From the sequence record SRR2962707_5284: DNA of 56,408 nucleotides, one strand, 5' to 3'. Position 1 is the stretch's first letter; each line of letters opens with the position of its first letter. The notes under the pieces were generated by a model. It was not told where the DNA came from. It saw only the letters and a program-made list of their open reading frames with translations, and did not search any database. Positions 6,139 through 24,892 of the stretch are shown one piece after another. The translations under genes and the position numbers were made by a program.

Positions 6139-6141
6139 CGG

Positions 6142-7236
6142 ATGTCCGTTGTCATTGTGGGCGGTGGTGTTGTCGGCCTGTCCATCGCTTACGGCCTATT
6201 GAAGACCGGCCAATCCGTCATCGTTCTAGACGGGGCCGAAGATGATTTTCGGGCTTCGCGTGGCAACTTTGGCCTGATCTGGGTCCAAGGAAAAGGTGCG
6301 ACGGCCCCTGCGTATGCGGCGTGGTCACGTCGATCTGCCGCGCTTTGGCAGGATTATGCCCATGATCTGCTTGAAGAAACGGGCGTTGACGTCTCGCTGA
6401 GCCAAACAGGCGGCATCGAGTATTTTACCGATGCCGCAGAGCTTGAGGCCTATGTCGCGGGACTAACGCAGCTGCGCGAGGCTTTGGAAGACGATTACCC
6501 GTTCGATGTTTTGGACAGAGCTGCGATGAAAAAACACGTGCCCGAAATCGGAGACAAGGTGATCGGGGGTGTTTTCTCAATCATGGATGGCCATGTGAAT
6601 CCTCTCGATTTGCTGCGCGCTCTTACTATTGCTGTGCGCAAAGCCGGTGGCAAAATCGTTACCGGCGCCGAGGTCGTAGATATTGAACCTGATGACGACG
6701 GATTTGCAGCTGTGCTGAAAAATGGCTCCAAAGTCGAAGGGGAGCGATTGATCTTGGCGGCCGGGCTTGGGGCTTTACAGCTGGGCCATAAGCTTGGGTT
6801 TTCCACGCCTATTCGCCCCCAGCAAGGGCAGGTTTTGATCACCGAAAGGCTGCCGCATTTCCTGCGCTACCCATCGGGGACAATTCGGCAGGTCAATGAA
6901 GGCGGCGTGCAAATTGGTGCGAGCAAAGCCGAGGTTGGAATGAACGATGGCATCGACATTCCAACCATCGCCGAACTGGCCAAACACGCCACGGACATCT
7001 TCCCCCATTTAGGTCAGGTGAAACTTGTGCGCAGTTGGGCCGCGTTGCGCGTCATGTCAGAAGATGGCCTGCCGATTTATCAACGTTCCGCCAAATTTCC
7101 ACGCGCGTCCTTCGTGACCTGCCACAGCGGTATAACGCTGTCTGCGGTTCATGCGCGTCTTCTTCCCGATTGGATACTAGAGCGTAATACCGCGCCCGAT
7201 CTGTCCCACTTTAGCGAAAGTCGTTTCAATGTTTAA
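6142..7236 (+). CDS. FAD-dependent oxidoreductase, opine dehydrogenase beta (OoxB/OdhB, HcnC-like)
   Basis: GGGVVG, ASRGNFGLIWVQGKG, CHSGITL. Confidence 0.88.
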   Translation: MSVVIVGGGVVGLSIAYGLLKTGQSVIVLDGAEDDFRASRGNFGLIWVQGKGATAPAYAAWSRRSAALWQDYAHDLLEETGVDVSLSQTGGIEYFTDAAELEAYVAGLTQLREALEDDYPFDVLDRAAMKKHVPEIGDKVIGGVFSIMDGHVNPLDLLRALTIAVRKAGGKIVTGAEVVDIEPDDDGFAAVLKNGSKVEGERLILAAGLGALQLGHKLGFSTPIRPQQGQVLITERLPHFLRYPSGTIRQVNEGGVQIGASKAEVGMNDGIDIPTIAELAKHATDIFPHLGQVKLVRSWAALRVMSEDGLPIYQRSAKFPRASFVTCHSGITLSAVHARLLPDWILERNTAPDLSHFSESRFNV

Positions 7237-7525
7237 ACCGCTTGCGACCCCAAGCACCGAGGATCAAGTGTCCTTTACATTCGATGGCCAACCCGTTGCA
7301 GCTCAGCGTGGCATGAGCGTCGCGGGTGCCTTGTTCCAAAGTGGCACCAATGCTGTTCGCACCACTCCCGTCAGCGGATCGGCCCGCGGGCCGTTTTGTA
7401 TGATGGGGGCCTGTTATGACTGTTTGGTGCAGATCAACGGGGTGACTGTTCAAGCCTGCCAAATTCCGGTGGCCGATGGGCTTGTTGTGGCTCGGGTTCC
7501 CAATACGCATAAAGGGGCACGGTGA
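7229..7525 (+). CDS. [2Fe-2S] subunit (OdhC/HcnA-like)
   Basis: RGPFCMMGACYDCLV...QACQ four-Cys motif. Confidence 0.88.
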   Translation: MFKPLATPSTEDQVSFTFDGQPVAAQRGMSVAGALFQSGTNAVRTTPVSGSARGPFCMMGACYDCLVQINGVTVQACQIPVADGLVVARVPNTHKGAR

Positions 7526-8925
7526 TGCACAGCCATTTTGATATCGTGGTCGTCGGGGCCGGGCCTGCGGGCATGTCCGCCGCAATCCAAGCGGCCAAAC
7601 ACGGAGCAGCTGTGTGTCTGCTAGATGAGCAGCTGCGTGCAGGTGGCCAGATCTACCGCAATGTTTCGAACACCAAGCCGACGCAGGCGAAGATACTGGG
7701 TAAGGATTACCTTGCAGGCCGCAAGCTTGTGCAAGAGCTGGAGCAAGCCTCGGTTGATCATCGCGCCGGTGTCACTGTCTGGAATGTTGGCGAAGACGGG
7801 GCTGTTACGTACAGTCGTAATGAGCAAGCACAACAAGTGCAGGGGCGACACGTTATTTTGGCCACTGGTGCCATTGAACGCCCGGTTCCCATTCCGGGCT
7901 GGACGCTTCCGGGTGTGATCACTGCCGGGGCCGCGCAGATCATGATGAAAAGCGAAGGGCTCGTGGCCCAGAATGCCGTTCTCGTGGGCTCAGGACCTTT
8001 GCTTTACTTGGTGGCCACGCAACTTTTGGCGGCAGGTGCGCCTCCGAAAGCCTTGGTTGAGACGCAAACGCGGCAAAACCTGATGTCAGCGATGCCACAT
8101 TTTTGGGGTGCCGTGAAAGACTGGAAACAGCTTGCCAAGGGCATGCGTTTTCTTTGGGCGCTTAAGCGTGCGAAAGTACCGCGTTTCACCGCCGCCACGG
8201 ATATCGCAGTTGAAGGCACCGATCATGCGCAAGCCGTGACATTCCGTGCGGGTGGCACAGAACATCGGATCGAAGCCGATATGGTTCTTTTGCACCAAGG
8301 CGTTGTTCCTAATACGCAAATCAGCCGATCTTTGCGGCTCGATCATCGCTTTGATGGCATTCAAAGGTGCTTCCATCCGGTCACAGATACGTTGGGCCAA
8401 ACCTCACATCCGATGTTTTCCATCGCAGGGGATGGGGCTGGGATTGGTGGCGCAAAAGTTGCGGCCATTTTGGGGCGGCTCTCTGCCCTGAACGCCTTAG
8501 CCCGTGTTGGCAAGATTGAGGATACATTGAGAGACAAAAAGGCCATTGACCTGATCAAGGCCCGCCAGTCTGAATTGTCCATTCGACCGTTCTTGGATGT
8601 GCTTTATTCGCCGCCAGAGTCGATCTTTTTGCCCGAGGATGACACGATCATTTGCCGCTGTGAAGAAGTGCGGGCGGGCGACATCCGGAAATTCGCGGCG
8701 ATGGGATGCGAAGGTCCCAACCGCACCAAGGTTTTTGGCCGCTGTGGTATGGGGCCATGCCAAGGGCGTAACTGTGGCCTGACCGTCACTGAAATCTTAG
8801 CCGCAGAACACAAGCACACACAGGATGAGGTTGGGGCCTTCCGTATTCGCGCGCCTCTCAAACCTGTCACCTTGTCAGAGCTTGCAGCGCTGACAGACAC
8901 AAAGTCTAAGGAAACCACTCAATGA
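7522..8925 (+). CDS. Opine dehydrogenase alpha subunit (OoxA/OdhA, HcnB-like), NAD(P)/FAD oxidoreductase with BFD-like Fe-S tail
   Basis: GAGPAG, GGQIYR, ATGAIER, ICRCEEV, RCGMGPCQGRNC, RAPLKPV. Confidence 0.9.
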   Translation: MMHSHFDIVVVGAGPAGMSAAIQAAKHGAAVCLLDEQLRAGGQIYRNVSNTKPTQAKILGKDYLAGRKLVQELEQASVDHRAGVTVWNVGEDGAVTYSRNEQAQQVQGRHVILATGAIERPVPIPGWTLPGVITAGAAQIMMKSEGLVAQNAVLVGSGPLLYLVATQLLAAGAPPKALVETQTRQNLMSAMPHFWGAVKDWKQLAKGMRFLWALKRAKVPRFTAATDIAVEGTDHAQAVTFRAGGTEHRIEADMVLLHQGVVPNTQISRSLRLDHRFDGIQRCFHPVTDTLGQTSHPMFSIAGDGAGIGGAKVAAILGRLSALNALARVGKIEDTLRDKKAIDLIKARQSELSIRPFLDVLYSPPESIFLPEDDTIICRCEEVRAGDIRKFAAMGCEGPNRTKVFGRCGMGPCQGRNCGLTVTEILAAEHKHTQDEVGAFRIRAPLKPVTLSELAALTDTKSKETTQ

Positions 8926-9266
8926 TCGAGCGCCTCCATACAGCAACTAAGATGAGTAAAATCGTCAAACACAACGGTGTCGCCTATCTGTGTGGCCAGG
9001 TGGGTGAGGGCGCAACCGTAACCGATCAAACGATCGAAACCTTATCGCGGGTCGATGCCCTACTGGCCGAGGCCGGGTCCTCGCGCAAGCACATTTTGCA
9101 AGCGATAATCTGGCTGGCAGATATGAAGGACGTCGCAGAAATGAACGCCGTTTGGAACGAGTGGATGCCAGAAGGGTTTGCGCCGGCCCGGGCCTGCGGC
9201 GAAGCAAAACTTGGACGCCCAGAATTGAAAGTCGAAGTCATCATTACAGCCGCTTACGAAGACTAA
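8922..9266 (+). CDS. RidA/YjgF/UK114 family protein
   Basis: YLCGQV, MNAVWNEW, APARAC, VEVII. Confidence 0.9.
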   Translation: MIERLHTATKMSKIVKHNGVAYLCGQVGEGATVTDQTIETLSRVDALLAEAGSSRKHILQAIIWLADMKDVAEMNAVWNEWMPEGFAPARACGEAKLGRPELKVEVIITAAYED

Positions 9267-9314
9267 AAGACAAGATGATCGCTTCAAACGATCATCCCTA
9301 TTGCGAGGCAACAC

Positions 9315-10439
9315 ATGAAATCGGGTACCAATTCGGTTACGGCCGAAACAATTGTGATTGGCGGCGGGTTGCATGGCTGCTCTACCGCTTTGCATCTTGC
9401 GCTGCGTGGTATGAAGGTCATCGTCCTTGAAAAGGATCGGGTGGGGCGTCATGCGTCAAGTGCGAATGCCGGCGGCGTGCGCCGTTTGGGCCGTGCATTG
9501 CCAGAGGTTCCGTTATCCTCGGCCTCTGCTGCGATTTGGCAAAATATCGAAGAGCTGGTGGATGACGATTGCGGGTTTGTTTCTTCCTATCAGGTCAAAC
9601 TGGCTGACACGGATGAGCAGCTTGATCAGCTTCGCGCCCGCGCGGCTCAGGTGCGTGACATGGGGTTCGAGCACGAAGAAATCATTGACCAACAAACTTT
9701 GCGCAGTTTGGTGCCAGCGGTTTCACCGGATTGTATCGGGGCCATGGCCGTTAAGGGCGATGGGTTTGCGAACCCTTTTCAATCGACAAAGGCGTTTCAC
9801 CAGAAATGCAAAAGGCTCGGCGTTGAGTTTTATGAGGGCAGCGGTGTTGAGCGTATTGAGCGTGTTGGCGCAGATTGGTCTGTGCAGACCAAGGACGGAA
9901 GCTATGTCGCGCAAAACATCGTGAATTGCGCCGGCGCGTGGGGCGGTAAAATTGCGGCGATGCTGGGCGATGATTTGCCTGTTGAAGCCCGCGCACCAAT
10001 GCTGATCATTACGGAAAAAATGCCCCCGTTTATTGAATGTGTTGCCGGGGCCCAAGGAACGCCTTTTTCGTTCAAGCAGTTCCCGAATGGCACGGTTTTG
10101 ATCGGCGGTGGCCATGTTGGTACGGCACATCCTGAGATCAATAAAACCGAGTTGGATTTCGCAGGTCTGGCCACCTATGCCATCACGGCCCAGCGATATT
10201 TCCCGATCATGAGAAATGCAAAGATTGTACGATGTTGGGCGGGGATCGAAGGGTTTATGCCGGACGGAATACCTGTCATCGGACCGGGGAAGGCTGACAA
10301 CGTTTTCCACAGTTTTGGGTACTCGGCACATGGCTATCAAATGGGGCCGATATGCGGAAAGATCCTTAGTGAACTGGTGCTGGATCGCGCGTCCACACTG
10401 CCCATTGACCCATTTAGCCCGAGCCGTTTCGCGGCCTGA
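9315..10439 (+). CDS. Second FAD-dependent oxidoreductase (OdhB2/sarcosine oxidase beta-like)
   Basis: GGGLHG, HASSANAGGVR, WAGIEG.MPDG.PVIG, GYSAHG. Confidence 0.88.
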   Translation: MKSGTNSVTAETIVIGGGLHGCSTALHLALRGMKVIVLEKDRVGRHASSANAGGVRRLGRALPEVPLSSASAAIWQNIEELVDDDCGFVSSYQVKLADTDEQLDQLRARAAQVRDMGFEHEEIIDQQTLRSLVPAVSPDCIGAMAVKGDGFANPFQSTKAFHQKCKRLGVEFYEGSGVERIERVGADWSVQTKDGSYVAQNIVNCAGAWGGKIAAMLGDDLPVEARAPMLIITEKMPPFIECVAGAQGTPFSFKQFPNGTVLIGGGHVGTAHPEINKTELDFAGLATYAITAQRYFPIMRNAKIVRCWAGIEGFMPDGIPVIGPGKADNVFHSFGYSAHGYQMGPICGKILSELVLDRASTLPIDPFSPSRFAA

Positions 10440-11161: not shown

Positions 11162-12106
11162 CTATGTGCTTTTGGATGGACGTCCTAACATCGGTTCAGA
11201 CATGGTGGAGATGCATTGTTGAATGCTTTCCCGTAACCAGCTATGCGCCGCGTCGGGGGTGTTATGGCGATGCCACTGCATGCTGTTTTTGTGCAGCGGT
11301 GTTTCGAAAGGCAGTTCAAAAATCCTTAAAGGCATTGTCGCGGCATAGTGGTTTGCCAAGCGCCGCTGGACTGTTGCGATACGTTGGGTGTTCAAAAGGA
11401 ACTCTGGCGTATGGTCAAATGCGCCGACAACAATCTCTGCGCGGCGCGTGACGCCGACATCAGACACGAATATCTCGTCAATGGGGGTCATGCGATAGGC
11501 GCCCAATCGAACAACAACGTGGCCTAAGCGTTCATAGGTTTGAAGTGTCAGTTCTTCGCCAATTTGATCGTTTTCATCCCAAGAAATCGCAACGAAGTCT
11601 TCGGTGTACAACGGCACCTGAGGCAAGTGAGGCTGCAAATATTGTTCAAGCGAGATGATCAGATCGATTTCACCGGACACGAATTTGTCAATTGTACGGG
11701 TTCCGGTCAAAGGCCAAATATCCAACTGCATATTTGGGGCTTTTTGTTGTATCTGGGCTGCGACTTTGGCTAGGAAAACACGGATTGAATAGTCCGGCGC
11801 GGCGATACTAAAGGATCGTTCGCTCGTTCTTGGGTCGAAGGGTTCGCGCTGGATCACATCTGACTGTACGTCCGTCAAAATGCGCCGCACGGGTTCGGCC
11901 AATTCGAGCGCGAGCTGTGTTGGCTTCATCCGTCGACCAATCGCCACAAAAAGCTCGTCGTTGAAGAATTCTCGCAAGCGACGCAGCGCGGCACTCATCG
12001 CCGACTGGCTTAGATTGATTTTTGCGGCTGCATTGGACACGGATTCTTCCGTCAGAAGTGCATCCAATGCCACTAATAGGTTCAGATCTAGCTTGTTGAA
12101 ACGCAT
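11162..12106 (-). CDS. NodD/FdeR-like LysR regulator #1
   Basis: MRFNKLDLNLLVALDALLTE.SVS.AA..INLSQSAMSAALRRLREFFNDELF is the NodD-type N-terminus; true start ATG 12106. Confidence 0.92.
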   Translation of the reverse strand: MRFNKLDLNLLVALDALLTEESVSNAAAKINLSQSAMSAALRRLREFFNDELFVAIGRRMKPTQLALELAEPVRRILTDVQSDVIQREPFDPRTSERSFSIAAPDYSIRVFLAKVAAQIQQKAPNMQLDIWPLTGTRTIDKFVSGEIDLIISLEQYLQPHLPQVPLYTEDFVAISWDENDQIGEELTLQTYERLGHVVVRLGAYRMTPIDEIFVSDVGVTRRAEIVVGAFDHTPEFLLNTQRIATVQRRLANHYAATMPLRIFELPFETPLHKNSMQWHRHNTPDAAHSWLRESIQQCISTMSEPMLGRPSKST

Positions 12107-12141
12107 CCCAATTTTCCCCCAGACACCAAAGAATGAATGAA

Positions 12142-12178
12142 ATTCATACGTCGAATTAATTCTACCAACTTGATTAAT
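12142..12178 (+). promoter_or_regulatory. nod-box-like LysR site upstream of the FAH-monooxygenase-kinase-enolase operon
   Basis: ATT-catacgtcg-AAT-taattct-ACC-aacttgatt-AAT (9/7/9 spacing). Confidence 0.6.
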
Positions 12179-12220
12179 ACTTGGGCAGGAGTCAAGTTTT
12201 GGCATCGAAAGGGAAGAGAA

Positions 12221-13207
12221 ATGAATCAAAAATTTGGATTGGTTTCGGTCAGCAAAAGTGCTGAGCAAATTGGAGCCGCAATCAGCGTGAGCGATCGTAT
12301 TTTGCCGTGTGCAACGGTTCCTGGCCTAGAAGCTTTTACGACAATTAACGCGATCCTTTCGCAGTGGGATGACGTCTTTCCGCTGCTGCAATCCACCGCA
12401 AATAATATTGCTGCCGGTAAACATGACGCGGATCTTCTTAGTTCCGAAGACGTGACCTTTCATATGCCACATACGCCGCCTCAGGTGTTTTGCACGGGCG
12501 CGAATTACCACCGTCACGTTGTTGAAATCATCATGGACCGCTTTTCAGATCGCTTTCGCGAGGATGGAAAGAGCGACGAAGAAATTCGTGACCATGTCGA
12601 AAATATGATGACAGAGCGGGCCAAGAACGGAACGCCTTACATCTTTTCGCGCATTCAATCATCTTATGCCGGACCGTTTGACGACATTGAGTTGCCAACC
12701 CATTCGACCCAACCTGACTGGGAAGCAGAGCTGGCGCTTGTCTTCAAAAAGGGCGGTACCAAGATTTCGCGGGAAAACGCGATGGACCATGTTGCAGGCT
12801 ATCTTGTGGTCAACGACATCACCAACCGCGACCAGATTTTTACCGCTGATCCTAAGGATTTGGGTGCTGACTGGCTGCATGCCAAACATAGCCCCGGGTT
12901 CTTTCCAATGGGGCCGATGATCGTACCTGCACAGTTTGTCCCAGATCCGCACAATTTACAGATCACGCTCAAGTTGAACGGGAAAACCATGCAGAATGAG
13001 AAATCAAACGACATGATTTTCGATATTCCGCGTCAGATTGAGGTGCTTAGCTCATATGCGCGGATCATGACGGGTGACGTTCTGGCAACAGGGTCACCTG
13101 CTGGAAACGGCACACATTACAACAGATATCTGCAGCCCGGTGATATCGTAGAAGTCAGCGTCGAAGGGCTGGGAACGCAAAAAAATCGCTGTGTTGCAGC
13201 GGATTAA
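12221..13207 (+). CDS. Fumarylacetoacetate hydrolase (FAH) family protein #1
   Basis: CTGANY, PDWEAEL, VNDITNRD, GSPAGNG; start ATG 12221 after GGGAAGAG. Confidence 0.92.
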   Translation: MNQKFGLVSVSKSAEQIGAAISVSDRILPCATVPGLEAFTTINAILSQWDDVFPLLQSTANNIAAGKHDADLLSSEDVTFHMPHTPPQVFCTGANYHRHVVEIIMDRFSDRFREDGKSDEEIRDHVENMMTERAKNGTPYIFSRIQSSYAGPFDDIELPTHSTQPDWEAELALVFKKGGTKISRENAMDHVAGYLVVNDITNRDQIFTADPKDLGADWLHAKHSPGFFPMGPMIVPAQFVPDPHNLQITLKLNGKTMQNEKSNDMIFDIPRQIEVLSSYARIMTGDVLATGSPAGNGTHYNRYLQPGDIVEVSVEGLGTQKNRCVAAD

Positions 13208-13228: not shown

Positions 13229-14357
13229 ATGGCTATTCAAAAAGCACTCGTAATTGGCGGCGGCATTGGCGGTCTTTGTTCTGCGATTGCCCTACGACAA
13301 AAAGGGATCGAAGTTGATCTGATCGAAAAGTCGGCAGCGAATTACGTTTGGGGCATTGGTATTATCCACCAAACCAACGCTGTGCGCTGAGGCGATGCTG
13401 GGTGTCGCGGATGAAGTGCTGAAGCAAGGCTGGGGGTTCTCTGGCGGTCGCATTCACAACAAAGCAGGTCATTTGATCCAAGAAATTGCGGCCCCACCTG
13501 CCAAAGAAGGTGCGATGCCTGGCGATATGGGCATCACACGTCCGCGTCTGGCAAAGATCTTGCAGAACAGGGCAGAAGCGCTTGGCACCAAGATTACTTT
13601 TTCGATGACCTGTAATGTCACAAAAAACGGCTCCGATGGTGCGGAAGTCACCTTCAGCAACGGTGAAGTCGCAGAGTATGACTTGGTTGTCGGTGCAGAC
13701 GGCATCTATTCCGATCTGCGTAACGAGCTTTGGGGTAAAGAATTTGCGCCGAAATTCGCTGGTCAAGGCGGATGGCGTTGCAACATTCCTCGCTTGCCTG
13801 AGGTCGATCAAGTTTGGTTGTTTCTGACAGATAAAGGCAACTGTGGCCTGATGCCTTTGGCTGACGATTTGATGTATATCTGGACCACCTCCAACGAACC
13901 GGATGCGAGCTGGAAAGAAGAATCTCAACTTCCCGCCGAAATGCACGGCATCGTGTCTGAGGTTGGCGGCATCTATGGCGAAATGCGGGACAAGTATTTG
14001 GTCGAAGGTGCAGACGTTATGTACCGGCCCTTTGAATATGTTGACCTGCCACGTCCGTGGCACAAGGGCTCGGTCGTATTGATCGGGGATGCCTCACACG
14101 CGTCAACTGCGCACCTCGCACAGGGGGCTGCAATGTCGATGGAAGATGCCATTGTGTTAGCGGAAGAGATTGAAAAAGCTAGCAACACACCGGATGCGCT
14201 GATCGAATGGGAAGAGCGCCGCTATGAGCGTTGTGACTGGATGGCAAAGACATCTCTGAAAATTTGCCAGCACGAACAGGGCCTTGTCGACGATCCCGGA
14301 TTCAACCTCATGGGCACTATGATTGAAGGTCGCAAAAAGGCGATGGCCCCTTTCTAG
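13229..14357 (+). pseudogene. FAD-dependent aromatic monooxygenase, frameshifted at ~13386
   Basis: GGGAGG RBS, ATG 13229: MAIQKALVIGGGIGG...HQTNAVR then TGA at 13388. The rest (AEAMLGV...GADGIYS...IGDASHA...AQGAAM) continues in another frame. Collinear with the paralog at 29185-30306. Confidence 0.85.
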
Positions 14358-14377: not shown

Positions 14378-15397
14378 ATGGACCACAATAGATTCGACCC
14401 GGAAGGCGCCGATTACAAAAGGCTTGTGACATCGCTCCGTGGAATGGGGCTTGTGACAAGCGCTGAACCACGGATCGTTCCTCTGACAGGTGGCGTTTCG
14501 TCTTTGATCGTTTTGGTCGAAGATGGCGATACAAAATTCTGTGCAAAAAGTGCCTTGGCGAAACTGAAAGTCGCCGAAGACTGGCTGGCGCCGGTGCACC
14601 GCAACCAGTCAGAAGTTACATGGATGCGCACTGCTGGAAAAATCGTCCCCGACGCTGTCCCAGCAGTTTTGGGGGAGGACGCGGCACAAAACGTCTTTGC
14701 GATGCAATGGTTGGACCCCAAAGAACATCCGGTCTGGAAGCAGCAGATGATGGACGGCGATGTCTCGGTCGAATTGGCGCGTCAGATGGGATCGGCATTG
14801 GGCCGCATTCACGCAGACACCGCAGGCGACGCCTCAGTTGCGGCGCAGTTTGCAAATGACGCGGATTTTGATGCGCTGCGCCTTGATCCGTATTTGCGCA
14901 CCACAGCCAAGGTTCATCCGGACGTGGCCGAGCAATTGTTTGCCATTCTGGACAAGACGGCCAGCACGGGGCTTGCCTTGATCCATGGTGATGTCAGCCC
15001 CAAAAACATCCTTACAGGCCCGAAAGGCCCTATCTTGCTGGATGCGGAATGCGCCACCTATGGCGATCCGGCTTTTGATCTGGCGTTTTGCCTGAACCAC
15101 TTGATCTTAAAGGCGGTTCATCTGCCAGATTACAAAGAGGCCTTGGCGCAAAGCTACAGGGCGATGGTGGAAAGCTACCTATCCCAAGTGAATTGGGAAC
15201 CGGTCGCAGATCTGGAAGCCCGCACTGCGGTCTTGTTGCCGGCTTTGGCTCTGGCCCGCGTCGATGGCAAATCACCGGTCGAATACTTGAGTGAAGCCGC
15301 CCGCACACAGGTGCGCGGTATGACACTTTGCCTTGTCAAAACACCAGTCGATGGACTGGACATATTACTGAAAAATTGGATGGAGAACTTGTCGTGA
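14378..15397 (+). CDS. Aminoglycoside phosphotransferase/methylthioribose-kinase-like small-molecule kinase
   Basis: LTGGVSS P-loop, HGDVSPKNIL, LLDAEC..YGDPAFDLA. Confidence 0.88.
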   Translation: MDHNRFDPEGADYKRLVTSLRGMGLVTSAEPRIVPLTGGVSSLIVLVEDGDTKFCAKSALAKLKVAEDWLAPVHRNQSEVTWMRTAGKIVPDAVPAVLGEDAAQNVFAMQWLDPKEHPVWKQQMMDGDVSVELARQMGSALGRIHADTAGDASVAAQFANDADFDALRLDPYLRTTAKVHPDVAEQLFAILDKTASTGLALIHGDVSPKNILTGPKGPILLDAECATYGDPAFDLAFCLNHLILKAVHLPDYKEALAQSYRAMVESYLSQVNWEPVADLEARTAVLLPALALARVDGKSPVEYLSEAARTQVRGMTLCLVKTPVDGLDILLKNWMENLS

Positions 15398-16677
15398 GCA
15401 CGTTGATCGAAGACATCAGAGCCCGACGCATTTGGGATAGCCGTGGCCGTCCTACGGTTGAAGTTGACGTGCGTTTGCAGAATGGCAAACGCGGTCGCGG
15501 GGTTGCGCCTGCCGGTGCCTCACGTGGTGTAAACGAAGCCGTTGATTTGCGTGATGGTGGGGACCGTTTTGGTGGCATGGATGTGACCAACGCGCTGGCC
15601 AAAATCAAAACTGATGTGGCCCCTGCAATCATCGGGTTGGACGCAATGGACCAACGCGCCGTCGACAACGCGCTGATCGCGCTGGACGACTCGCCGAACA
15701 AAGCAAACATCGGCGGCAATACGACGGTTGCGACCTCGATGGCGGTTCTGCGTGCAGCGGCAACCTCGTCTGGGGGGGCGCTGTGGCGTTACCTCGCGGA
15801 TGGCAAAAACGTCCGCCTTCCATTGCCCGAAATCCAGATCTTCGGTGGCGGGGCCCATGCGGGACGTCGCGTTGATATTCAGGACTTCATGATCATGCCG
15901 TTGGGCGCTGAAAGCTTCAGCCATGCCATGGAAATGGTTTGCAACGTCTATGCCGCGGCGGGCGAGCTGATGTCGCAAAAAGCGCCATTAACCGGCGTGG
16001 CGGACGAGGGCGGTTACTGGCCAAACTTCGACAACAACGAAGAAGCTTTGGACATGCTGACCAAGTCGATCGAGCGGGCAGGGTACAACAACGACCAAGT
16101 GATGATCTCGCTGGATATTGCGGCCTCTGAATTCCATGACAATGGTCAGTACCGTTTGGGCCTCGAAGACCGCGCCTATGACACCGGCGAATGGATCGAC
16201 GTGTTGGGCCGCTGGATCGATACCTACCCGATCATCTCAATCGAAGATCCTGTGGACGAGCTGGACCACGACGGCATGGTCGAATTCACCAAACGTTTCG
16301 GCAGTCGTTTGCAAATCATTGGTGACGACTACCTCGTGACCTCGGCTGATCGCGTGAAACAAGCGCAAGAGATCGGGGCTTGTAACGCGGTTCTGATCAA
16401 AGCCAACCAGGTTGGCACGATCTCGGAAACCTTCGACACGCTGGAAGCGGCGCGCGCCAAAGATTGGGGTACGATTGTTTCGGCGCGTTCAGGTGAAACC
16501 GAAGACACCATCATTTCTGATCTGTCCACCGGTTGGGACGCGGGTCAGTTGAAGGTTGGATCTTTCACGCGCTCTGAGCGTCTGGCCAAATGGAACCAAG
16601 TGCTGCGCATGGAAGACATGCTGGGTGACAAGGCCGTCTATGCTGGCCGCAGCGCACTGCCGAAAGGTCTTCGCTGA
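15394..16677 (+). CDS. eno: Divergent enolase paralog
   Basis: DSRGRPTVEV, PAGASRG, GGAHA, DEGG, LDIAASEF, SIEDP, GDD, LIKANQ, SARSGETED, QLKVGS; GTG overlaps the kinase stop. Confidence 0.9.
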   Translation: MSTLIEDIRARRIWDSRGRPTVEVDVRLQNGKRGRGVAPAGASRGVNEAVDLRDGGDRFGGMDVTNALAKIKTDVAPAIIGLDAMDQRAVDNALIALDDSPNKANIGGNTTVATSMAVLRAAATSSGGALWRYLADGKNVRLPLPEIQIFGGGAHAGRRVDIQDFMIMPLGAESFSHAMEMVCNVYAAAGELMSQKAPLTGVADEGGYWPNFDNNEEALDMLTKSIERAGYNNDQVMISLDIAASEFHDNGQYRLGLEDRAYDTGEWIDVLGRWIDTYPIISIEDPVDELDHDGMVEFTKRFGSRLQIIGDDYLVTSADRVKQAQEIGACNAVLIKANQVGTISETFDTLEAARAKDWGTIVSARSGETEDTIISDLSTGWDAGQLKVGSFTRSERLAKWNQVLRMEDMLGDKAVYAGRSALPKGLR

Positions 16678-17633
16678 TGAAAGCCATCCTTCATTACCGC
16701 GCAGGTCCGATCCTGCGCCAAACCCTCGCGGATAATCCGCCAGCGGGCTGGGACGTTGTCGTTGTCGATGAAACCGACGTTGAAACGTTTGAGCGTGAGC
16801 TGGCAGATGCCGATGTGCTGTTGCACGTTTTGCAGCCAATTGGTCGCGATCAAATGGAAAAAGCGCCCAAGCTGAAGCTGATCCAAAAGATCGGCGTTGG
16901 GGTCGACACGATTGATCTTGTTGCGGCCGAGGAACTTGGCATCGGTGTGGCCAACATGCCGGGCACCAACTCTCAAGCCGTAGCTGAAATAGCGATTGGC
17001 CTGATGCTGTCTGTTCTGCGTCAGATCCCGATGTTCGATGCGTCGATGCGCAAAGGCACGGGCTGGTCGATGCCACCTGAACAGCTAGAACGGTCGGGCG
17101 AGATTTCGGGCCGCACCGTAGGCTTCATTGGCTTTGGTGAAGTGCCTCGTCGCATCGCGCCAATCCTGACAGGCTTCGGGGCCAAGATCATCTATCACGA
17201 TATGGTCGAACACGATGGGTTTGGTGCGACGAAGCGCAGCCAGGAAGACGTGATGACCGAGGCTGATATCGTCTCGCTTCACGTGCCCTTGGTCGACAGC
17301 ACCCGTGAATTGATCCGCGCTGAAAACATCGCGAAGATGAAAGATGGCGCAGTCCTGATCAACACGGCTCGTGGCGGTCTGGTCAACGAAGCCGATCTTT
17401 TTGAGGCGCTGCAAAGCGGCAAACTACTCGGAGCGGGGCTGGACGTTTTGAACCAGGAACCCGCACCCAAAGAGACCCCGCTACTGTCTCTGCCGAACGT
17501 CGTGGCGTTGCCGCATGTTGCCTGGCTCACGCCTGAGACCATCACGCGCAGTTTGGACGTCGCCTTCAAGAACGCTGAGCTGGCCGTGAAGGGCAGCGAT
17601 CTTATCAATCAAATCAAACCCGTGAAGCGCTAA
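16677..17633 (+). CDS. D-2-hydroxyacid dehydrogenase family protein
   Basis: GVGVDTID, GFIGFG, INTARGGLV, GLDV..QEP, LPHVA; TGATG coupling. Confidence 0.92.
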   Translation: MKAILHYRAGPILRQTLADNPPAGWDVVVVDETDVETFERELADADVLLHVLQPIGRDQMEKAPKLKLIQKIGVGVDTIDLVAAEELGIGVANMPGTNSQAVAEIAIGLMLSVLRQIPMFDASMRKGTGWSMPPEQLERSGEISGRTVGFIGFGEVPRRIAPILTGFGAKIIYHDMVEHDGFGATKRSQEDVMTEADIVSLHVPLVDSTRELIRAENIAKMKDGAVLINTARGGLVNEADLFEALQSGKLLGAGLDVLNQEPAPKETPLLSLPNVVALPHVAWLTPETITRSLDVAFKNAELAVKGSDLINQIKPVKR

Positions 17634-17674: not shown

Positions 17675-18670
17675 ATGGCACGTAAGCTACTCTCAAAATT
17701 GACCCATCTGGTCCTGACGACCCCGAAACTCGAAGAGTCGTTCAAATTCTACCATGACGTTATCGGCCTTGAACTGTCAGGCAAGGAAAACGGATCCTAC
17801 TTTATGCGGGGTTGGGGTGAGCACTACATGCACTCCATCGAGCTGAAGGAAGGTCCCGTAGGTTCTGTCGAATGCATCGGCTGGCGCGCACAGGGTGAAG
17901 AAGAGCTCGAGCTGGCTGTCGCCGCTATCGAAGCTACCGGCCAAGGCATTGGTTGGGTTGAGCCAAACTTTGGCCGTGGTCGTGCTTACCGCTACATGGA
18001 CAAATCTGGTCACCAGCACGAAGTGTATTGGGATGTTGTTCGCTACAAGGCGCCAGCTGACGAAGCCCCAATTTTCCCCAACCGTGCGCAGCGCTACAAG
18101 CCACGGGGTTGTGCCGTGCGTGAGATCGACCACGTGACAATCAACAGCCCGGATATCGAAGGTGATATTAAGTGGTTTGGCGAAACTTTGGGTCACCAGT
18201 ACATGGAATTCATTGAAACACCTGACAACAAAAAGGTGTTTGCAATGACCACAACAGGAGAACGCGGTCACGACATGGCCATCGTGCCTGAGCTGCCCGG
18301 TCTGCGTGGTCGTGTAAACCACATCGCTTTCTGGTGTGACCAGCGTGTTGAAATGTACCGTGCAGCTGAAGTTCTGCTTGATGCGGGTGTCCACATTGAA
18401 TTTGGTCCAGGCCGTCACGGTTTGGGTGAGCAAGACTTCTTGTACATCCGTGAACCATCTGGTCTGCGCATCGAATTCAACGCAGGTGGTTACCGTTTGG
18501 CGCAGCCTGACTGGGAACCCGTTGGTTGGAAAGTCTCCGAAGGTGCGAACGATTGGTACAAAAACCAGACGCCTCCGCACTCCATGTTCGAAAGCTTCCC
18601 AGCTGAAGCAGAAGTTGAAGCTTCGGAAGAAGCGAAACAGTACTTCCGCGACACAACATTCTTCGAATAA
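17675..18670 (+). CDS. Extradiol ring-cleavage dioxygenase (catechol 2,3-dioxygenase-like, VOC)
   Basis: IDHVT, HDMAI, VNHIAF, GPGRHG, FLYIREPSGLRIE metal/catalytic motifs; strong TAGGAGGA RBS. Confidence 0.92.
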   Translation: MARKLLSKLTHLVLTTPKLEESFKFYHDVIGLELSGKENGSYFMRGWGEHYMHSIELKEGPVGSVECIGWRAQGEEELELAVAAIEATGQGIGWVEPNFGRGRAYRYMDKSGHQHEVYWDVVRYKAPADEAPIFPNRAQRYKPRGCAVREIDHVTINSPDIEGDIKWFGETLGHQYMEFIETPDNKKVFAMTTTGERGHDMAIVPELPGLRGRVNHIAFWCDQRVEMYRAAEVLLDAGVHIEFGPGRHGLGEQDFLYIREPSGLRIEFNAGGYRLAQPDWEPVGWKVSEGANDWYKNQTPPHSMFESFPAEAEVEASEEAKQYFRDTTFFE

Positions 18671-18687: not shown

Positions 18688-18733
18688 ACTGTCTCCAATT
18701 GAAGGCCTGGCTTTCGATTGGGGACAGTTTTTA
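18688..18733 (+). terminator. Rho-independent terminator after the dioxygenase
   Basis: ACTGTCTCCAATTGAA...TTCGATTGGGGACAGT stem followed by a T run. Confidence 0.75.
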
Positions 18734-18750: not shown

Positions 18751-19782
18751 TTACAAGCCGAGCAGAGCAGCGGCAGTGCCGCCCATGACGGCCTCGCGCG
18801 TTGCCTTGTCCGCCAATGATTTCGCAAGGCGATCAACGTCATAATCTCCCATGTCAAAGGCGTAGTCTGTGCCAAACGCCACGCGATCTGCACCGACATT
18901 CTCGATCAAATACCCAAGATAGGTGTCGTCAAACAGCACCGTATCAAACCAAATTTTCCTTAGGTAACTTGAGGGCGGATTGGCGCAGTTCTGAATTTCC
19001 GGGCGCACGGACCAAGCGTGATCAGACCGACCAATATAATGGGGTAGGTAGCCGCCGCCATGGGCCGCCAACACTTTTAGATTTGGGTAGCGGTCAAAAA
19101 CACCAGAAAAAATCATGTGGGACAGGGCAATTGTCGTCTCGGCAGGTTGCCCGATCGTGTTCGATAGGTAATCCCGGTTCAAACGTTTCCCCAGCGATGT
19201 CCCGAGCGGGTGGATAAACACCACGGCCCCGGTTTCTTCTGCCGTCTGCCAAACCAAATCAAGACTTGCATCAGACAATTCAAGTGGACCAACGGCTGTA
19301 GAGATTTCAAATCCCTTCAGCCCTGCCGCCATAAGGTCTTTTATCTGCTGGGCGGCCAGTTCCGGATGCTGCAAAGAGACGATACCAAGTGCAGCGATAC
19401 GACCGTCCCCCTGAGCGACAATGTCCTGCATTGCCTCATTGGCCAATCCAACAAGGTCTGTCGCAAAGGCGTCATCCGCCCAATAGCTGTAGATATGTGG
19501 AGAAGGGCACACGACCTGAAGGTCAATTCCCATGTTGTCCAGGTCGGTCATCCGCGCATCGAGTGACGCAAAGCGAGCGCCTGCCTGTGGCAACATCACG
19601 GTGCCATTGTGCTTCATTGATGCTTCGCCAATGCCCTCGGCCATCATTTTCATACCAGCCGCAAATTCTGGTCGATGTGAGATCAGCGCATCGACCTTTG
19701 GGGCACCGGCATGACCGTGAATATCGATTACACGAACATCCTGGCGCGGTGCAGCAGTGCTGGGTACATATTTATCAGTCAC
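18751..19782 (-). CDS. Amidohydrolase_2 family protein (ACMSD-like decarboxylase/hydratase)
   Basis: IDIHGH, FIHP, AHGGG, FGTDY; start uncertain (GTG 19782 preferred; ORF open to 19839). Confidence 0.88.
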   Translation of the reverse strand: MTDKYVPSTAAPRQDVRVIDIHGHAGAPKVDALISHRPEFAAGMKMMAEGIGEASMKHNGTVMLPQAGARFASLDARMTDLDNMGIDLQVVCPSPHIYSYWADDAFATDLVGLANEAMQDIVAQGDGRIAALGIVSLQHPELAAQQIKDLMAAGLKGFEISTAVGPLELSDASLDLVWQTAEETGAVVFIHPLGTSLGKRLNRDYLSNTIGQPAETTIALSHMIFSGVFDRYPNLKVLAAHGGGYLPHYIGRSDHAWSVRPEIQNCANPPSSYLRKIWFDTVLFDDTYLGYLIENVGADRVAFGTDYAFDMGDYDVDRLAKSLADKATREAVMGGTAAALLGL

Positions 19783-19845
19783 AATAGGGGTCTTTCTCGA
19801 CAGAGATTGGGCGGCAGTTGCAAGAGGCCGATCCAGCAATAGCCA

Positions 19846-20769
19846 TTAATTGACATAGTCATTTGTGGGTAGGTTTGAGGCTGCTTCCTGTATCACGTCG
19901 CGCAACCAGACGATGCCGGGGTCATGGGCTCTGTATTCGTGCCATTGCACCATTTGTCGAACGGGCGGCATATGAAATGGCATCGGATAGGTCACAAGGT
20001 TGGCCATCGGCGCGATGGTTTGCGCGAGCCGTTTATGCACCGTCGCAATTCTATCCGTTTGAGAAATCAAATGGGGCAACGTAGAGAACGAGAAGGTCTC
20101 GATCTCAATCCGGCGGGTGATGCCCGCCTTCTTCAATAGGAAGGATTCTCCGGTCAACGTTCCGTTCTGCATCTTCATGGAAGCGTGGGGGGCGGACTCG
20201 TAGGTAATTCGATCCATTGTGCAATCGCCGTACTTACCATCGCCCCATGCAGCCACGACGTAGCGATCTTCGAACAGAAGTTCAGCCGGGTGACCGGGAG
20301 ACAGGAAGATTTCAGGCGTTACCAGCAAATCAATCTCGCCGCGCTCCAACAAGATCTGTGGTGAGTCCGTGGGGGGGCGCATGTTGATGCCAACTGTTGC
20401 ATTCTGTTTGCCCAGAATCTTGAAAACCTCTGGCATCAAAACACGGATTGTGTAGTCCGACAGCAAAATGTTGAACGTGCGAATTGAGGCATCCGGATGG
20501 AATTGTGGTTGAGAGTCTATGGTCGCTTCGATCCTAACCAGAATGTCACGAATGGCCGGGCGCATGGCCTCTGCGCGGGGCGTGATTTCCATCCGCCGTC
20601 CGACCTGCACGAGCAACGGGTCATCAAAATAAGTGCGCAACCGTCGCAATGCATTAGACATTGCCGATTGGCTCATGAACATTTTGTCCGCAGCGGCTGA
20701 CACCGATCGAAGTTCGATCATGTGATCGAGAGCTGTCAGTAGATTTAGATCAAGTTTCTTGAATCTCAT
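19846..20769 (-). CDS. NodD/FdeR-like LysR regulator #2
   Basis: MRFKKLDLNLLTALDHMIELRSVSAAADKMFMSQSAMSNAL; N-terminus nearly identical to #3. Confidence 0.92.
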   Translation of the reverse strand: MRFKKLDLNLLTALDHMIELRSVSAAADKMFMSQSAMSNALRRLRTYFDDPLLVQVGRRMEITPRAEAMRPAIRDILVRIEATIDSQPQFHPDASIRTFNILLSDYTIRVLMPEVFKILGKQNATVGINMRPPTDSPQILLERGEIDLLVTPEIFLSPGHPAELLFEDRYVVAAWGDGKYGDCTMDRITYESAPHASMKMQNGTLTGESFLLKKAGITRRIEIETFSFSTLPHLISQTDRIATVHKRLAQTIAPMANLVTYPMPFHMPPVRQMVQWHEYRAHDPGIVWLRDVIQEAASNLPTNDYVN

Positions 20770-22299: not shown

Positions 22300-23058
22300 C
22301 TAGGTGTCAAAGCCCGGGAACTGACGACGCGCTTTGCGAAGCTGCGCCTGCCACGTGCCCATATTGAACATATGTTTGTCGCTCCAGGTGCCTTCGGCTT
22401 CATTCGCTGCGCGGTCCACGATGGATTGATCGATCTCGTAGGCCTCTATACCACCAGGGCCGATGCCGCTGGCGATCTGTACGGAACAGGCGCGGTTCAG
22501 CATATAGGCGAGGAAATACGCCTCTTTCACTGAGTGCCCCCAGACGATCATACCGTGGCCGCGCAGAAGCGTGACTTGGCTTTCGCTGAAGCATTTCACC
22601 AGTTTCTCGGCTTCCGTGGGGCCGGTCAGGAAGCCTTCATATTCGTGATAAGCGACGTCGCCGATCCAGATGGCCCACTGGTTGTTGCGCACAAGCCCTT
22701 GCTTTTGCATTGACACGCCGATGGTGCTGAAGGAATGGGCGTGGATCACGCATTTTGCCTCGGGGATCGCGTCATAAACGCTTTTATGCATCGGGTAGGA
22801 AAAGCCGTGGGTGCGAGCTTCGGAATTGTAGACTTCCTTGCCCTGAGCATCGAGTAAGTGCAGCGATGAAGCGGTGATCTCCTCAAACATCTCGGCTGGA
22901 TCGTTCATAAGAACCTGCGAGGGGTTGTCAGGCGAACGGGCGGTAAAGTGTTCAAAACACAGATCGGCGCCCCATTCGGCTTCGCCTAAGCGTATGGCGG
23001 CAGCCAAATCAACGCGGGTGTTCCATTCTGCCTCTGAGACGTGCGCTCTCTTTGTCAT
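22300..23058 (-). CDS. Class II aldolase/adducin family protein (possible decarboxylase)
   Basis: EWNTRVDLAAA, FEEITASSL, IHAHS, LLRGHG; start ATG 23058 after GAGGAGG. Confidence 0.88.
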   Translation of the reverse strand: MTKRAHVSEAEWNTRVDLAAAIRLGEAEWGADLCFEHFTARSPDNPSQVLMNDPAEMFEEITASSLHLLDAQGKEVYNSEARTHGFSYPMHKSVYDAIPEAKCVIHAHSFSTIGVSMQKQGLVRNNQWAIWIGDVAYHEYEGFLTGPTEAEKLVKCFSESQVTLLRGHGMIVWGHSVKEAYFLAYMLNRACSVQIASGIGPGGIEAYEIDQSIVDRAANEAEGTWSDKHMFNMGTWQAQLRKARRQFPGFDT

Positions 23059-23161
23059 GTTTCCTCCTCTAATGCCGTGCGCCTGACGGGGCGGGCGGCC
23101 AATTTGATGTGATTTGGGCCGACAGGTATAACGCCCGTCGACCCAGTTCAGATTTGAAACT

Positions 23162-24193
23162 TTAGTCCTTTGGCTCTGGCCAGAGGCCAAAGGCAAGTGG
23201 GCGATCTGGTGTGGGTTCTTGGCGGCAGATGTTGGTTTGCTTGCCAAGCCCCGTGACCGCGCCAACGATCACGTCGCCATCCTGCAAGAAGCGCCCGTGG
23301 TGCTTGCCGTTTCCGGGAGGTGAACCAGACAAGATCATGTCACCGGGCGTCAGGTTGATACGCTCAGACAAATAAGAAACCATTTGCTGATGGCTAAATA
23401 TCATGTCGTTGCACGGCCAATCCTGCATGACCTTGTCATTAACGCTCAGAGTGATGCGGGCGGTGTCCACATCATACATCTGGCGTGGAACGATGAAGGG
23501 GCCTGCGATTTTGAACGTCGGCTGGTGTTTGGAAATCCAATCGAATTGGAAGTGAATATCGGTACGGCGGAAGATGTCTACCGTGCCGATGTCATTGACC
23601 GCACAATAGCCCGCAATCAGGCCATCGGCCTCTTCCACTGAGGCATAGCGAGCAGACTTTCCGATCACACAGGCCAGTTCCATTTCCCAATCGGGTTCGT
23701 CGCCAAGAACGGGTAACACTAGATCATTATTCGCACCAACAAGCGACGAGTGCAGACCAGTCCATAGGAAAGGCGTGCCGGTGCGCTGGCGTTCTTCCAT
23801 GGCTTCATAGTTGCGCTGGTAGAACTCTTCATCCGTTTCACCCGGTTTGCGATTGTGCTGGTTGAACTTGTTCTTGGTCAGCATTTCCGCGACGTGTTGT
23901 TTGTAGTTCGATCCTGCACAAAGAAGGTTAGGGTGGGCAACCGGCTTGAGCGGTTCAACCTCGGAAAACTCGAAGTCCACGCGCTCTGTTGCGGCAAGAT
24001 CGACCAAGACGTCAAAGTTGCGGTCCCAATCGTCAAAAATGTGGTGCGTGTCATAGAATTTGTCAGAAAGATCGATGGACTGGCCATCGGCCCGGACAAG
24101 CCCGGGGACAGGTTTGCCGTCGCGCGAAAATGTTCCGACACCGAATGTCCCGTCAAACAGGCCCGTCGCGGGATTGATGGTTTTGTTCGTCAT
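23162..24193 (-). CDS. FAH family protein #2 (paralog of #1)
   Basis: CAGSNY, PDWEMEL, VNDIG, GSPPGNG; start ATG 24193 after GGGAGG. Confidence 0.9.
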   Translation of the reverse strand: MTNKTINPATGLFDGTFGVGTFSRDGKPVPGLVRADGQSIDLSDKFYDTHHIFDDWDRNFDVLVDLAATERVDFEFSEVEPLKPVAHPNLLCAGSNYKQHVAEMLTKNKFNQHNRKPGETDEEFYQRNYEAMEERQRTGTPFLWTGLHSSLVGANNDLVLPVLGDEPDWEMELACVIGKSARYASVEEADGLIAGYCAVNDIGTVDIFRRTDIHFQFDWISKHQPTFKIAGPFIVPRQMYDVDTARITLSVNDKVMQDWPCNDMIFSHQQMVSYLSERINLTPGDMILSGSPPGNGKHHGRFLQDGDVIVGAVTGLGKQTNICRQEPTPDRPLAFGLWPEPKD

Positions 24194-24265
24194 GTTGAGG
24201 ACTTCCTCCCAAGTGTAATTCCGCGCTATAATACTAGGGTACATAACAGTCAGCTATTCGCATTC

Positions 24266-24892
24266 ATGTCAGAGCCGAATCCACCGCTAACCCCCCGAAA
24301 ACGCCCAACTCAAGCGCGTTCCAAGCAATTGGTTGATACCATTCTGCAAGGGGCTATTCGCGTTTTGGAAGACCAGGGGCGGGCCAATTTTTCCACGACA
24401 GAGATCGCCGAAACAGCCGGGGTTTCTATTGGGTCTCTGTACCAATATTTCGGGTCCAACGATGCCATCATGGCCGAACTTGTTTTGCGGGAACATGAAA
24501 GGCTTTTGGCCCGTACGAATGAAGCTGCAGAAACGACAGAAGGCCTAGAGGTCGAAGATGCGGTACGCATCTTGATCCATGCCCTTTCGCGGGACAAACC
24601 CACGAGACGGATAGCGCGTATTCTGGAAGAGGAAGAAGAGCGGCTCCCACGCACACCCGATTTGATCGAGGTGGAAGCCGCCATTCGCGCAAACTCGGAC
24701 GCCTTTTTTCAACGTCTCCTTGCTGGGTATATGCCCGATGAAAGGATCGCGATTGTGACGCTGGACGTCTTTAAGATTGCGCGCGGTATGTTTGATGGTC
24801 CGCAGCCCGCCGTAGATCCCGAAGGACCCGACGCGCTGCCGGAACGTATTGTGCGGGTGATCTTGGGCTATTTCGACCGAATGATGCCTTAG
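24266..24892 (+). CDS. TetR/AcrR family regulator
   Basis: PRKRPTQARSKQLVDTIL...FSTTEIAETAGVSIGSLYQYF; start ATG 24266. Confidence 0.9.
   Translation: MSEPNPPLTPRKRPTQARSKQLVDTILQGAIRVLEDQGRANFSTTEIAETAGVSIGSLYQYFGSNDAIMAELVLREHERLLARTNEAAETTEGLEVEDAVRILIHALSRDKPTRRIARILEEEEERLPRTPDLIEVEAAIRANSDAFFQRLLAGYMPDERIAIVTLDVFKIARGMFDGPQPAVDPEGPDALPERIVRVILGYFDRMMP

Follow-up and report, generated by a model that had tools for sequence, protein, structure and literature searches.

A variant enolase clade coupled or fused to an APH-fold kinase: a candidate phosphorylate-then-eliminate pair in an oxygenolytic operon

The window considered here is a DNA stretch of 56,408 nucleotides from sequence record SRR2962707_5284, in which positions 14,378 to 17,633 hold three genes that encode, in turn, an APH-fold small-molecule kinase, a paralogue of enolase and a D-2-hydroxyacid dehydrogenase. 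The kinase and the variant enolase are functionally tied, because the two genes are adjacent in 76 of the 77 loci that have room for both and because the two proteins are fused in 95 of the 120 kinase homologues longer than 594 residues, among the matches listed. In the reading that we prefer, and to which we give a probability of roughly 0.55, the kinase, which has the fold of 5-methylthioribose kinase (MtnK), acts on the 2-hydroxyl of a D-2,3-dihydroxy acid, the enolase paralogue carries the resulting phosphate on to phosphoenolpyruvate (PEP) or a PEP-like product, and the dehydrogenase supplies the hydroxy acid.

Using an alignment of 25 kinase homologues as a query against species-representative genomes, we obtained at least 600 matched stretches and at least 592 confirmed relatives, and kept 80 loci; three further loci were recovered from metagenomes with the window kinase as query (56-57% identity), giving 83 in total. 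Neighbouring genes were called by a choice of open reading frames (ORFs) weighted by G+C content at third codon positions (GC3) in GC-rich DNA, and the neighbours were then anchored on the module. The variant enolase lies directly beside the kinase in 76 of the 83 loci; in six others the contig ends less than or at most 178 nt from the kinase, and in the last one (L030) no enolase was found in the room after the kinase, where the ORF (7429-8790) is Arg-rich and looks spurious. The closest genome locus, in a metagenome-assembled genome (MAG) of the Granulosicoccaceae (L001; 62% identity for the kinase and 75% for the enolase), contains the pair and none of the other operon genes of the window.

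Of the 95 fusions, 93 are in the order kinase-enolase, and 82 of these carry the SARSGE motif of the variant enolase, one carries SRRSGE and ten gave no motif hit by pattern; of the other two, one has its enolase match split in two and the other is in the order enolase-kinase. Among the remaining 25 long kinase homologues, 18 have the kinase before or behind another recognisable domain: a UxuA-type aldonate (mannonate) dehydratase in ten cases (P0305, P0319, P0323 and others), a GRDB-like domain in four (weak matches), an ApbA/PanE 2-oxoacid reductase ahead of the kinase in two (P0341, P0343), an SMP-30 lactonase in one (P0337) and an FGGY kinase in one. The kinases fused behind UxuA, ApbA/PanE or lactonase domains are 42-50% identical to the window kinase. 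Four kinase forms of 603-604 amino acids have an N-terminal domain of about 270 residues, for which no Pfam match was found in the two that were scanned (P0348, P0358). Tight coupling together with fusion suggests that the two enzymes of the pair share a private intermediate.

The dehydrogenase follows another pattern. A homologue (42-53% identity) adjoins the pair in 15 of the 76 loci, and a member of its family is found within 6 kb in 21 of them; the conserved unit is therefore the kinase-enolase pair and not the trio, whose synteny a first-pass annotation of the window had put forward as a check. The window dehydrogenase falls under all equivalog cut-offs (199 against 454 for phosphoglycerate dehydrogenase, 189 against 455 for glyoxylate reductase and 156 against 492 for GhrB), and among solved structures it is closest to an archaeal phosphoglycerate dehydrogenase, with glycerate dehydrogenase/glyoxylate reductases coming next.

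On the enolase model TIGR01060 the variant enolase reaches 481.2 bits, above the cut-off of 300. Aligned with solved bacterial enolases, it reads DIQDFMIMP for DIQEFMIMP, VSARSGETED for VSHRSGETED and FGGGAHAG for NGGxHA, which correspond, in what we take to be yeast numbering, to E168D, H373A and N155G; these substitutions had been reported in the first-pass annotation, and alignment and numbering confirm both them and the two codons that it gave (D164 at 15883 and A364 at 16483, counted from 15394). Its statement that the metal and acid/base residues are kept also agrees with the alignment, in which the motifs LDIAASE, SIEDP, GDD, IKANQ, ADEGG, GAS, GGAHA, ARSGE and GQLKVG are present, among them those holding the residues that we presume to be S39, H159, E211, D246, E295, D320, K345, R374 and K396 of yeast. 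Judged from these motifs, the Mg ligands, the Lys/Glu acid-base pair and the phosphate- and carboxylate-binding groups are retained in the variant enolase.

For a wider comparison, the window enolase and its best 120 homologues (62-94% identity) were taken as the clade set, and 26 enolases from genomes that carry the pair as the canonical set. SARSGE and the GGG[AV]HA loop are present in all 121 clade members; the position of H373 is Ala in 121/121 of them and His in 26/26 canonical copies, and that of E168 is Asp in 120/121 and Glu in 26/26. In all, 22 alignment positions reach a conservation of 90% or more inside each group and yet differ between the groups; beyond the E-to-D, H-to-A and N-to-G changes, they include PSGAS to PAGAS, GDEGGFAP to ADEGG[WYF]WP and GQIKTG to GQLKVG. 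The clade signature also includes Arg gained at positions 19 and 158 of the window enolase, with R often present in GASRG, and a bulky Trp is gained (ADEGGWWP). In a quick maximum-likelihood tree of 74 rows, a branch with SH-aLRT 100 splits the 26 canonical enolases from 48 variant and fused sequences. The SARSGE enolases are a coherent clade and not a case of local decay, since the signature is fixed in 121 sequences, 22 positions separate the groups and the branch between them is fully supported.

The variant is an extra enolase copy in its carriers. All five isolate genomes encode it (462-483 bits) and, in addition, one or two canonical enolases; the latter score 635-692 bits and have the motifs SHRSGE, NGGxHA (NGGAHA in five copies, NGGKHA in one) and GDEGGF; five of these canonical copies have QE[FL]M, GDEGGFAP and GQIKTG, and the sixth (L086) has GDEGGFVP and GQIKSG, with no QE motif by pattern. 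An intact canonical enolase (641-697 bits) was also found besides the variant (427-497 bits) in 21 of 22 further carrier genomes, which makes 26 of 27 overall. In the exception, a Bryobacterales MAG (G027, contig C9, 67267-68546), the canonical enolase is present only as pieces interrupted by stops, probably owing to an assembly error. A classical glycerate kinase is encoded in all five isolate genomes tested, with PF02595 in two and MOFRL in four.

The kinase belongs to a large family, with 858 representatives (50%-identity clusters) at E <=1e-30. Its only significant Pfam matches are of APH type (PF01636, 72 bits, plus weak matches to EcKL and TCAD9), and neither the PF02595 Gly_kinase nor the PF05161 MOFRL domain gave a significant Pfam match. 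On the MtnK model TIGR01767 it scores 58.8 bits, far under the cut-off of 275. The best solved folds for its AlphaFold model (pLDDT 91.6) are 5-methylthioribose kinases (TM about 0.8, 15-17% identity), followed by PsiK and LxmK, and a profile search of solved structures clearly detected the 5-methylthioribose kinase family only. An ESM Atlas look-up returned generic 'phosphotransferase' clusters only. The alignment of the kinase family contains many invariant Arg and Lys residues, which would fit an anionic substrate. Prediction of a kinase-enolase complex gave a score of 0.00, with controls not folded, and speaks neither for nor against binding. A variant methionine-salvage pathway, made up of an MtnK-like kinase, an 'enolase' and a cupin, was rejected on two grounds: the MtnK score lies far under its cut-off, and no other salvage genes were seen.

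Most genomic contexts of the pair are either clusters for the oxidation of sugars or sugar acids, or unrelated settings. In Paracoccus seriniphilus and Roseibium aggregatum, a LacI regulator is followed by kinase, enolase, FAH and SDR genes and a sugar ABC transporter, and a Burkholderia plasmid has the order SDR, UxuA, GntR, UxuA, SDR, lactonase, FAH, kinase, enolase and then a sugar ABC transporter; the layout is that of non-phosphorylative sugar oxidation, whose end products are pyruvate and a hydroxy acid. A haloarchaeal plasmid has the kinase and enolase amid sugar-acid dehydratases and a CtBP-type dehydrogenase. In Methylobacterium nodulans the pair stands alone. These cases, like those of R. 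opacus PD630 and Rhizobium sp. CIAT894 given below, come from annotated plasmids. In Rhizobium panacihumi (L023:6733-16572) the pair shares a cluster with the dehydrogenase, an FAH-family protein, an MFS transporter, two HpcH aldolases and a MOFRL glycerate kinase that is accompanied by a GarR-like reductase, so that this single sugar-acid locus has two kinases and two reductases.

The first-pass annotation expected the module to be syntenic with ring-cleavage genes elsewhere. Homologues of the window dioxygenase or monooxygenase were found in none of the 80 genome loci, an FAH gene in 7 of the 83 loci and a VOC gene in one of the 83, but FAH or dioxygenase-type partners do recur in a few lineages. 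In Rhodococcus opacus PD630, FAH, dehydrogenase, enolase and kinase genes overlap, with a second FAH gene 28 nt further on and a cupin gene upstream. Paraburkholderia sediminicola (L038) has, on one strand, LacI, kinase, enolase, dehydrogenase, MFS, oxygenase-reductase, a small ORF, FAH, FAH, VOC and a zinc-dependent alcohol dehydrogenase (Zn-ADH). In a plasmid of Rhizobium sp. CIAT894, a LysR gene precedes ppc, dehydrogenase and kinase genes, these three being consecutive on one strand, and cupin, enolase and VOC genes lie a few genes away. Dioxygenase-type genes of module clusters are accordingly a VOC gene in Paraburkholderia, a VOC and a cupin gene in Rhizobium CIAT894 and a cupin gene in R. 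opacus. The window FAH protein is 38% identical to the R. opacus PD630 partner and 32% to an L038 FAH, nearly over the full length (same subtype), and the window dioxygenase shares 28% identity with the VOC protein of CIAT894 and is weakly like that of L038 (23% over 141 residues). Ring-cleavage synteny is therefore the exception. As to a single conserved neighbour, this idea was rejected, as the neighbours are highly heterogeneous and the commonest one (an FGGY kinase, nine cases) reflects local synteny among related Burkholderiales.

In the window, the trio belongs to six plus-strand genes flanked by a divergent LysR gene and a convergent amidohydrolase gene; the order is FAH hydrolase, FAD monooxygenase, kinase, enolase paralogue, dehydrogenase and VOC extradiol dioxygenase (Table 1). 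The translational coupling of the three genes claimed at first pass is real, all three families being confirmed: the kinase stop and the enolase start overlap as GTGA, and the enolase stop and the ATG of the dehydrogenase as TGATG. The enolase starts at GTG 15394, which gives the MSTLIED N-terminus common to 427-residue homologues, and the TTG at 15328 that heads the ORF is not its start. Spacers of 20 nt before the kinase and 41 nt before the dioxygenase each show, by eye, a purine-rich (Shine-Dalgarno-like) stretch ahead of the ATG. The hairpin just 3' of the dioxygenase gene is the sole long terminator-like one and has by far the longest stem, while the total of terminator-like sites equals the shuffle expectation. 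Because of the gene overlaps, the short spacers and this one strong hairpin after the dioxygenase, the coupled trio probably belongs to a six-gene transcription unit that ends at the hairpin. The operon is probably LysR-controlled. The LysR protein probably starts about 60 codons inside its ORF, and the likely start of the FAH hydrolase is Met29, at 12221.

Table 1. Features of the window in and around the operon that contains the kinase-enolase pair
Feature	Position	Strand	Remarks
Upstream cluster	2322..10439		Polyamine/opine-type ABC transporter (SBP_bac_8, ATPase, two permeases) and three FAD oxidoreductases, one with a sarcosine-oxidase-alpha A3 / BFD-like [2Fe-2S] domain
LysR-family regulator	11162..12268	-	HTH_1 and LysR_substrate domains; HTH_1 from residue 62; divergent from the operon
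FAH-family hydrolase with N-terminal extension	12137..13207	+	PF01557, 202 bits; under all NCBIfam equivalog cut-offs
FAD monooxygenase, PRK06847-like, in two frames	13229..14357	+	NCBIfam NF005313 match from profile position 50 on
APH-fold small-molecule kinase	14378..15397	+	PF01636; partner of the variant enolase; MtnK-like fold
Variant enolase, 427 aa	15394..16677	+	Enolase_N and Enolase_C; signature PAGASRG, FGGGAHA, IQDFM, ADEGGYWP, SARSGE, GQLKVG
D-isomer-specific 2-hydroxyacid dehydrogenase	16677..17633	+	PF02826, 184 bits; PF00389, 85 bits
Two-domain VOC-type extradiol dioxygenase	17675..18670	+	PF00903; solved relatives are catechol and homoprotocatechuate dioxygenases
Terminator-like hairpin	18688..18728	+	19-pair stem, then a T-run
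Amidohydro_2 protein	18751..19839	-	Decarboxylase/hydrolase type; convergent with the operon
Amidohydro_2 protein and second LysR regulator	18751..20769		Directly past the operon terminator
Second catabolic cluster	22300..31305	-	Class II aldolase/adducin-type protein, two FAH proteins, epimerase-fold reductase, cupin, GST, alpha/beta hydrolase, FAD monooxygenase, LysR
FAH protein of the second cluster	23210..23797		41% identity to the R. opacus FAH partner
Cupin of the second cluster	26819..27334		38% identity to the Rhizobium CIAT894 cupin encoded next to the variant enolase

Two of the flanking genes differ from what had been described at first pass. The gene called catechol 2,3-dioxygenase scores 217.7 bits on TIGR03211, under the cut-off of 320.2, and the protein is therefore named here an extradiol dioxygenase without assignment of a substrate. 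A monooxygenase gene is indeed present upstream of the trio, but it is split: its N-terminus with GGGIGG runs from the ATG at 13229 to the TGA at 13388-13390, and the remainder is in another frame (ORF 13356-14357), with an apparent single-base frameshift near 13385-13390 that is either the mark of a pseudogene or a sequencing error. Further away, the layout of the upstream cluster resembles an opine- or amine-oxidase system, and the second catabolic cluster may, from the identities of its cupin and FAH proteins, be functionally tied to the kinase-enolase module.

The preferred reading would run as follows. The dehydrogenase would form a D-2-hydroxy acid by reduction of the corresponding 2-oxo acid, which in the case of glycerate is hydroxypyruvate; the APH-family kinase would phosphorylate a D-2,3-dihydroxy acid at its 2-hydroxyl, the acid being most likely D-glycerate or something very close to it; and the dedicated enolase paralogue would then remove the C3 leaving group to give PEP or a PEP-like enol phosphate. 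A 2-phospho acid is proposed as the enolase substrate because the machinery for 2-phospho-carboxylates is retained, and the order from 2-oxo acid to D-2,3-dihydroxy acid, 2-phosphate and enol phosphate is drawn from this machinery, from the D-2-hydroxy-acid reductases found as neighbours or fusion partners, from the contexts that would yield pyruvate plus a hydroxy acid and from the one linkage to ppc. Glycerate and PEP are the simplest candidates for substrate and product. In the window, the trio would have been recruited as the tail of an oxygenolytic operon (FAH, flavin monooxygenase, extradiol dioxygenase), from which a C3 oxo- or hydroxy-acid fragment would enter central metabolism at PEP; the module probably salvages such a fragment from the oxygenolytic part of the operon, and this much of the first-pass scheme is plausible and is backed to some extent by synteny in three other lineages. 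The sequences show the order and overlaps of the genes, the family of each protein, the conserved change in the active-site signature, the near-obligate linkage and fusion of kinase and enolase, and the status of the variant as an extra copy; where the kinase phosphorylates, which acid it uses, what is formed and how this connects to the product of the FAH hydrolase are inferred.

Several observations weigh against this reading. The immediate neighbours of the pair vary widely, 142 of them spanning 137 Pfam families, about 70% of the loci are without an adjacent reductase, and ppc had to be rejected as a general partner, being found in none of the 83 genome and metagenome loci and seen in the CIAT894 plasmid only. 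For plain D-glycerate, the module looks redundant, since all five genomes tested have a classical glycerate kinase, which once lies within the cluster of the pair, and since carriers almost without exception have a canonical enolase as well. At two positions where the 26 canonical copies do not vary, the whole clade has another residue, which argues for a changed chemistry or substrate. In the window itself, the frameshift in the monooxygenase gene may interrupt the local pathway in its upstream part, unless this is a sequence error.

Three facts suggest that the substrate may be something other than plain D-glycerate or 2-phosphoglycerate (2-PG): the residue changes at the C3 leaving-group site are fixed, canonical enolase and classical glycerate kinases coexist with the pair (the latter once in the same operon), and coupling or fusion is nearly obligate. 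The same phosphorylate-then-eliminate logic would in that case apply to another acid, such as a C4-C6 aldonate, 2,3-dihydroxybutanoate, a 3-O-substituted glycerate, L-glycerate or a bisphosphorylated acid that loses phosphate, and the reaction of the clade would not be EC 4.2.1.11. Besides the three substitutions, the Trp and Arg gains (R19, R158) in or near active-site motifs, the suggested private intermediate and the fusion of the kinase to UxuA-type aldonate dehydratases and a lactonase are in favour of such a substrate, but the clade has lost none of the groups for binding and enolising a 2-phospho-carboxylate, 2-PG is still a possible substrate, and no context names a specific alternative acid; we regard this account as somewhat unlikely. 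Its L-glycerate version draws on the FAH-plus-SDR sugar routes, which on L-hexoses would, by extension from the known routes for L-fucose and L-rhamnose, release L-glycerate. The reductases linked to the pair (D-2-hydroxyacid dehydrogenase and ApbA) yield 2-hydroxy acids of D configuration, which does not speak for this version. The statement that the SARSGE clade is not a 2-PG enolase and, with its MtnK-fold kinase, performs an ATP-driven phosphorylate-then-eliminate conversion of a different acid is one that we put forward tentatively, as a possibility.

A quite different account would make the variant an ordinary pathway-specific isozyme that acts on normal 2-PG beside an unrelated kinase, the residue changes tuning kinetics or regulation. 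The TIGR01060 score, the intact catalytic Lys/Glu pair and Mg ligands and the precedent of pathway-specific glycolytic paralogues, such as the pyruvate kinase of the Agrobacterium tartrate operon, would all agree with it; we consider it improbable in view of the adjacency and the fusions that tie the two enzymes, of the replacement of residues that canonical enolases keep invariant, and of the long, fully supported branch between the clades. The route sketched in the first-pass annotation, in which the FAH hydrolase releases 3-methoxypyruvate from an aromatic ring bearing a methoxy group, the dehydrogenase makes 3-O-methylglycerate of it, the kinase phosphorylates C2 and the enolase yields PEP and methanol, fits in its outline of reductase, 2-hydroxyl kinase, enolase and PEP-type product, but nothing was found in this analysis on methoxy groups, methanol release, flavonoids or scopoletin, and the window holds no pointer to methoxylated substrates. 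The changed residues do lie at the C3 leaving-group site; in the window, genes for an FAH hydrolase, a monooxygenase and an extradiol dioxygenase do belong to the operon of the trio, and in Paraburkholderia L038 the trio is joined by FAH and VOC genes. Against this, the pair occurs without any FAH gene in 76 of the 83 loci, homologues of the dioxygenase and monooxygenase of the window were found in none of 80 loci and most contexts are of the sugar-acid type or unrelated, so that the methoxy route appears very improbable. The enlarged enolase pocket that it invoked is deduced from side-chain sizes, and the clade meanwhile gains bulky Trp and Arg.

Returning to the preferred reading, the pair can be set beside several known systems. 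It resembles canonical enolase (EC 4.2.1.11; TIGR01060; PF03952 and PF00113) in its two-domain fold family, above-cut-off score and catalytic motifs, and differs from it by E168D, H373A, N155G and 19 further positions, by lower bits, by its status as an extra copy and by the coupled or fused APH-fold kinase. The lower branches of the serine cycle, of the non-phosphorylative Entner-Doudoroff pathway and of the glucarate/tartrate pathways, which consist of hydroxypyruvate reductase, glycerate 2-kinase and enolase, have the same order as that proposed here, from 2-oxo acid through D-2-hydroxy acid and 2-phospho acid to PEP, and the ppc linkage in one plasmid and the presence of the pair inside sugar-acid clusters add to the resemblance; by contrast, the kinase here is of the APH/MtnK fold and not GlxK/GarK (PF02595) or MOFRL, and the enolase is a dedicated variant. 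MtnK itself (TIGR01767; PDB 2pyw, 2olc) is the closest solved fold of the kinase, but the low identity and score already given set them apart, and the kinase was never seen with methionine-salvage genes in this analysis. LxmK, of the LxmK/LxmY lanthipeptide dehydratase (PDB 9dk2), is among the next-best structural matches. LxmK/LxmY is an APH-fold kinase tightly coupled to an elimination enzyme, with a phosphorylate-then-eliminate logic; here, unlike there, the phosphate is predicted to stay as an enol phosphate and the partner is an enolase-fold enzyme.

In the full-text literature, with subscription journals and supplementary files outside the scope of the search, we found neither a description of the kinase-enolase pair nor an assay of any enzyme of the clade. 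A paper on L-threonate 3-dehydrogenase (PMC12994016) is unrelated to the pair, and so is one on CpgD (bioRxiv 10.64898/2026.05.18.725363), according to which both enantiomers of 2-phosphoglycerate can be purchased. The present analysis adds the finding that classical glycerate kinases coexist with the pair, the genomic settings in R. panacihumi and, with ppc, in Rhizobium CIAT894, the kinases fused to ApbA, UxuA or a lactonase, a signature of 22 positions with gains of Arg and Trp, and the recurrence, in a minority of clusters, of an FAH subtype and of dioxygenase-type genes.

The pair recurs, often fused, in hundreds of microbes. To our knowledge, enolase is among the most conserved enzymes known and its subgroup is regarded as isofunctional, and every close homologue of the variant enolase is annotated as glycolytic. 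Because the clade is large, carries fixed changes at two catalytic-site residues and has a dedicated, often fused kinase, routine annotation probably misnames its reaction, or at least its role. If the substrate is glycerate, the pair would represent a fourth, unrecognised type of glycerate kinase with an enolase of its own, which bears on the reconstruction of sugar-acid, C1/C2 and aromatic catabolism; if it is something else, the pair would be new enzymology within a textbook family, and, should the conversion of a different acid be true, this would be the first new reaction inside the enolase subgroup and hundreds of 'phosphopyruvate hydratase' annotations would be wrong. The window would offer an example of such a module being added to a ring-cleavage operon, where it would allow a C3 fragment to be regained in the form of PEP.

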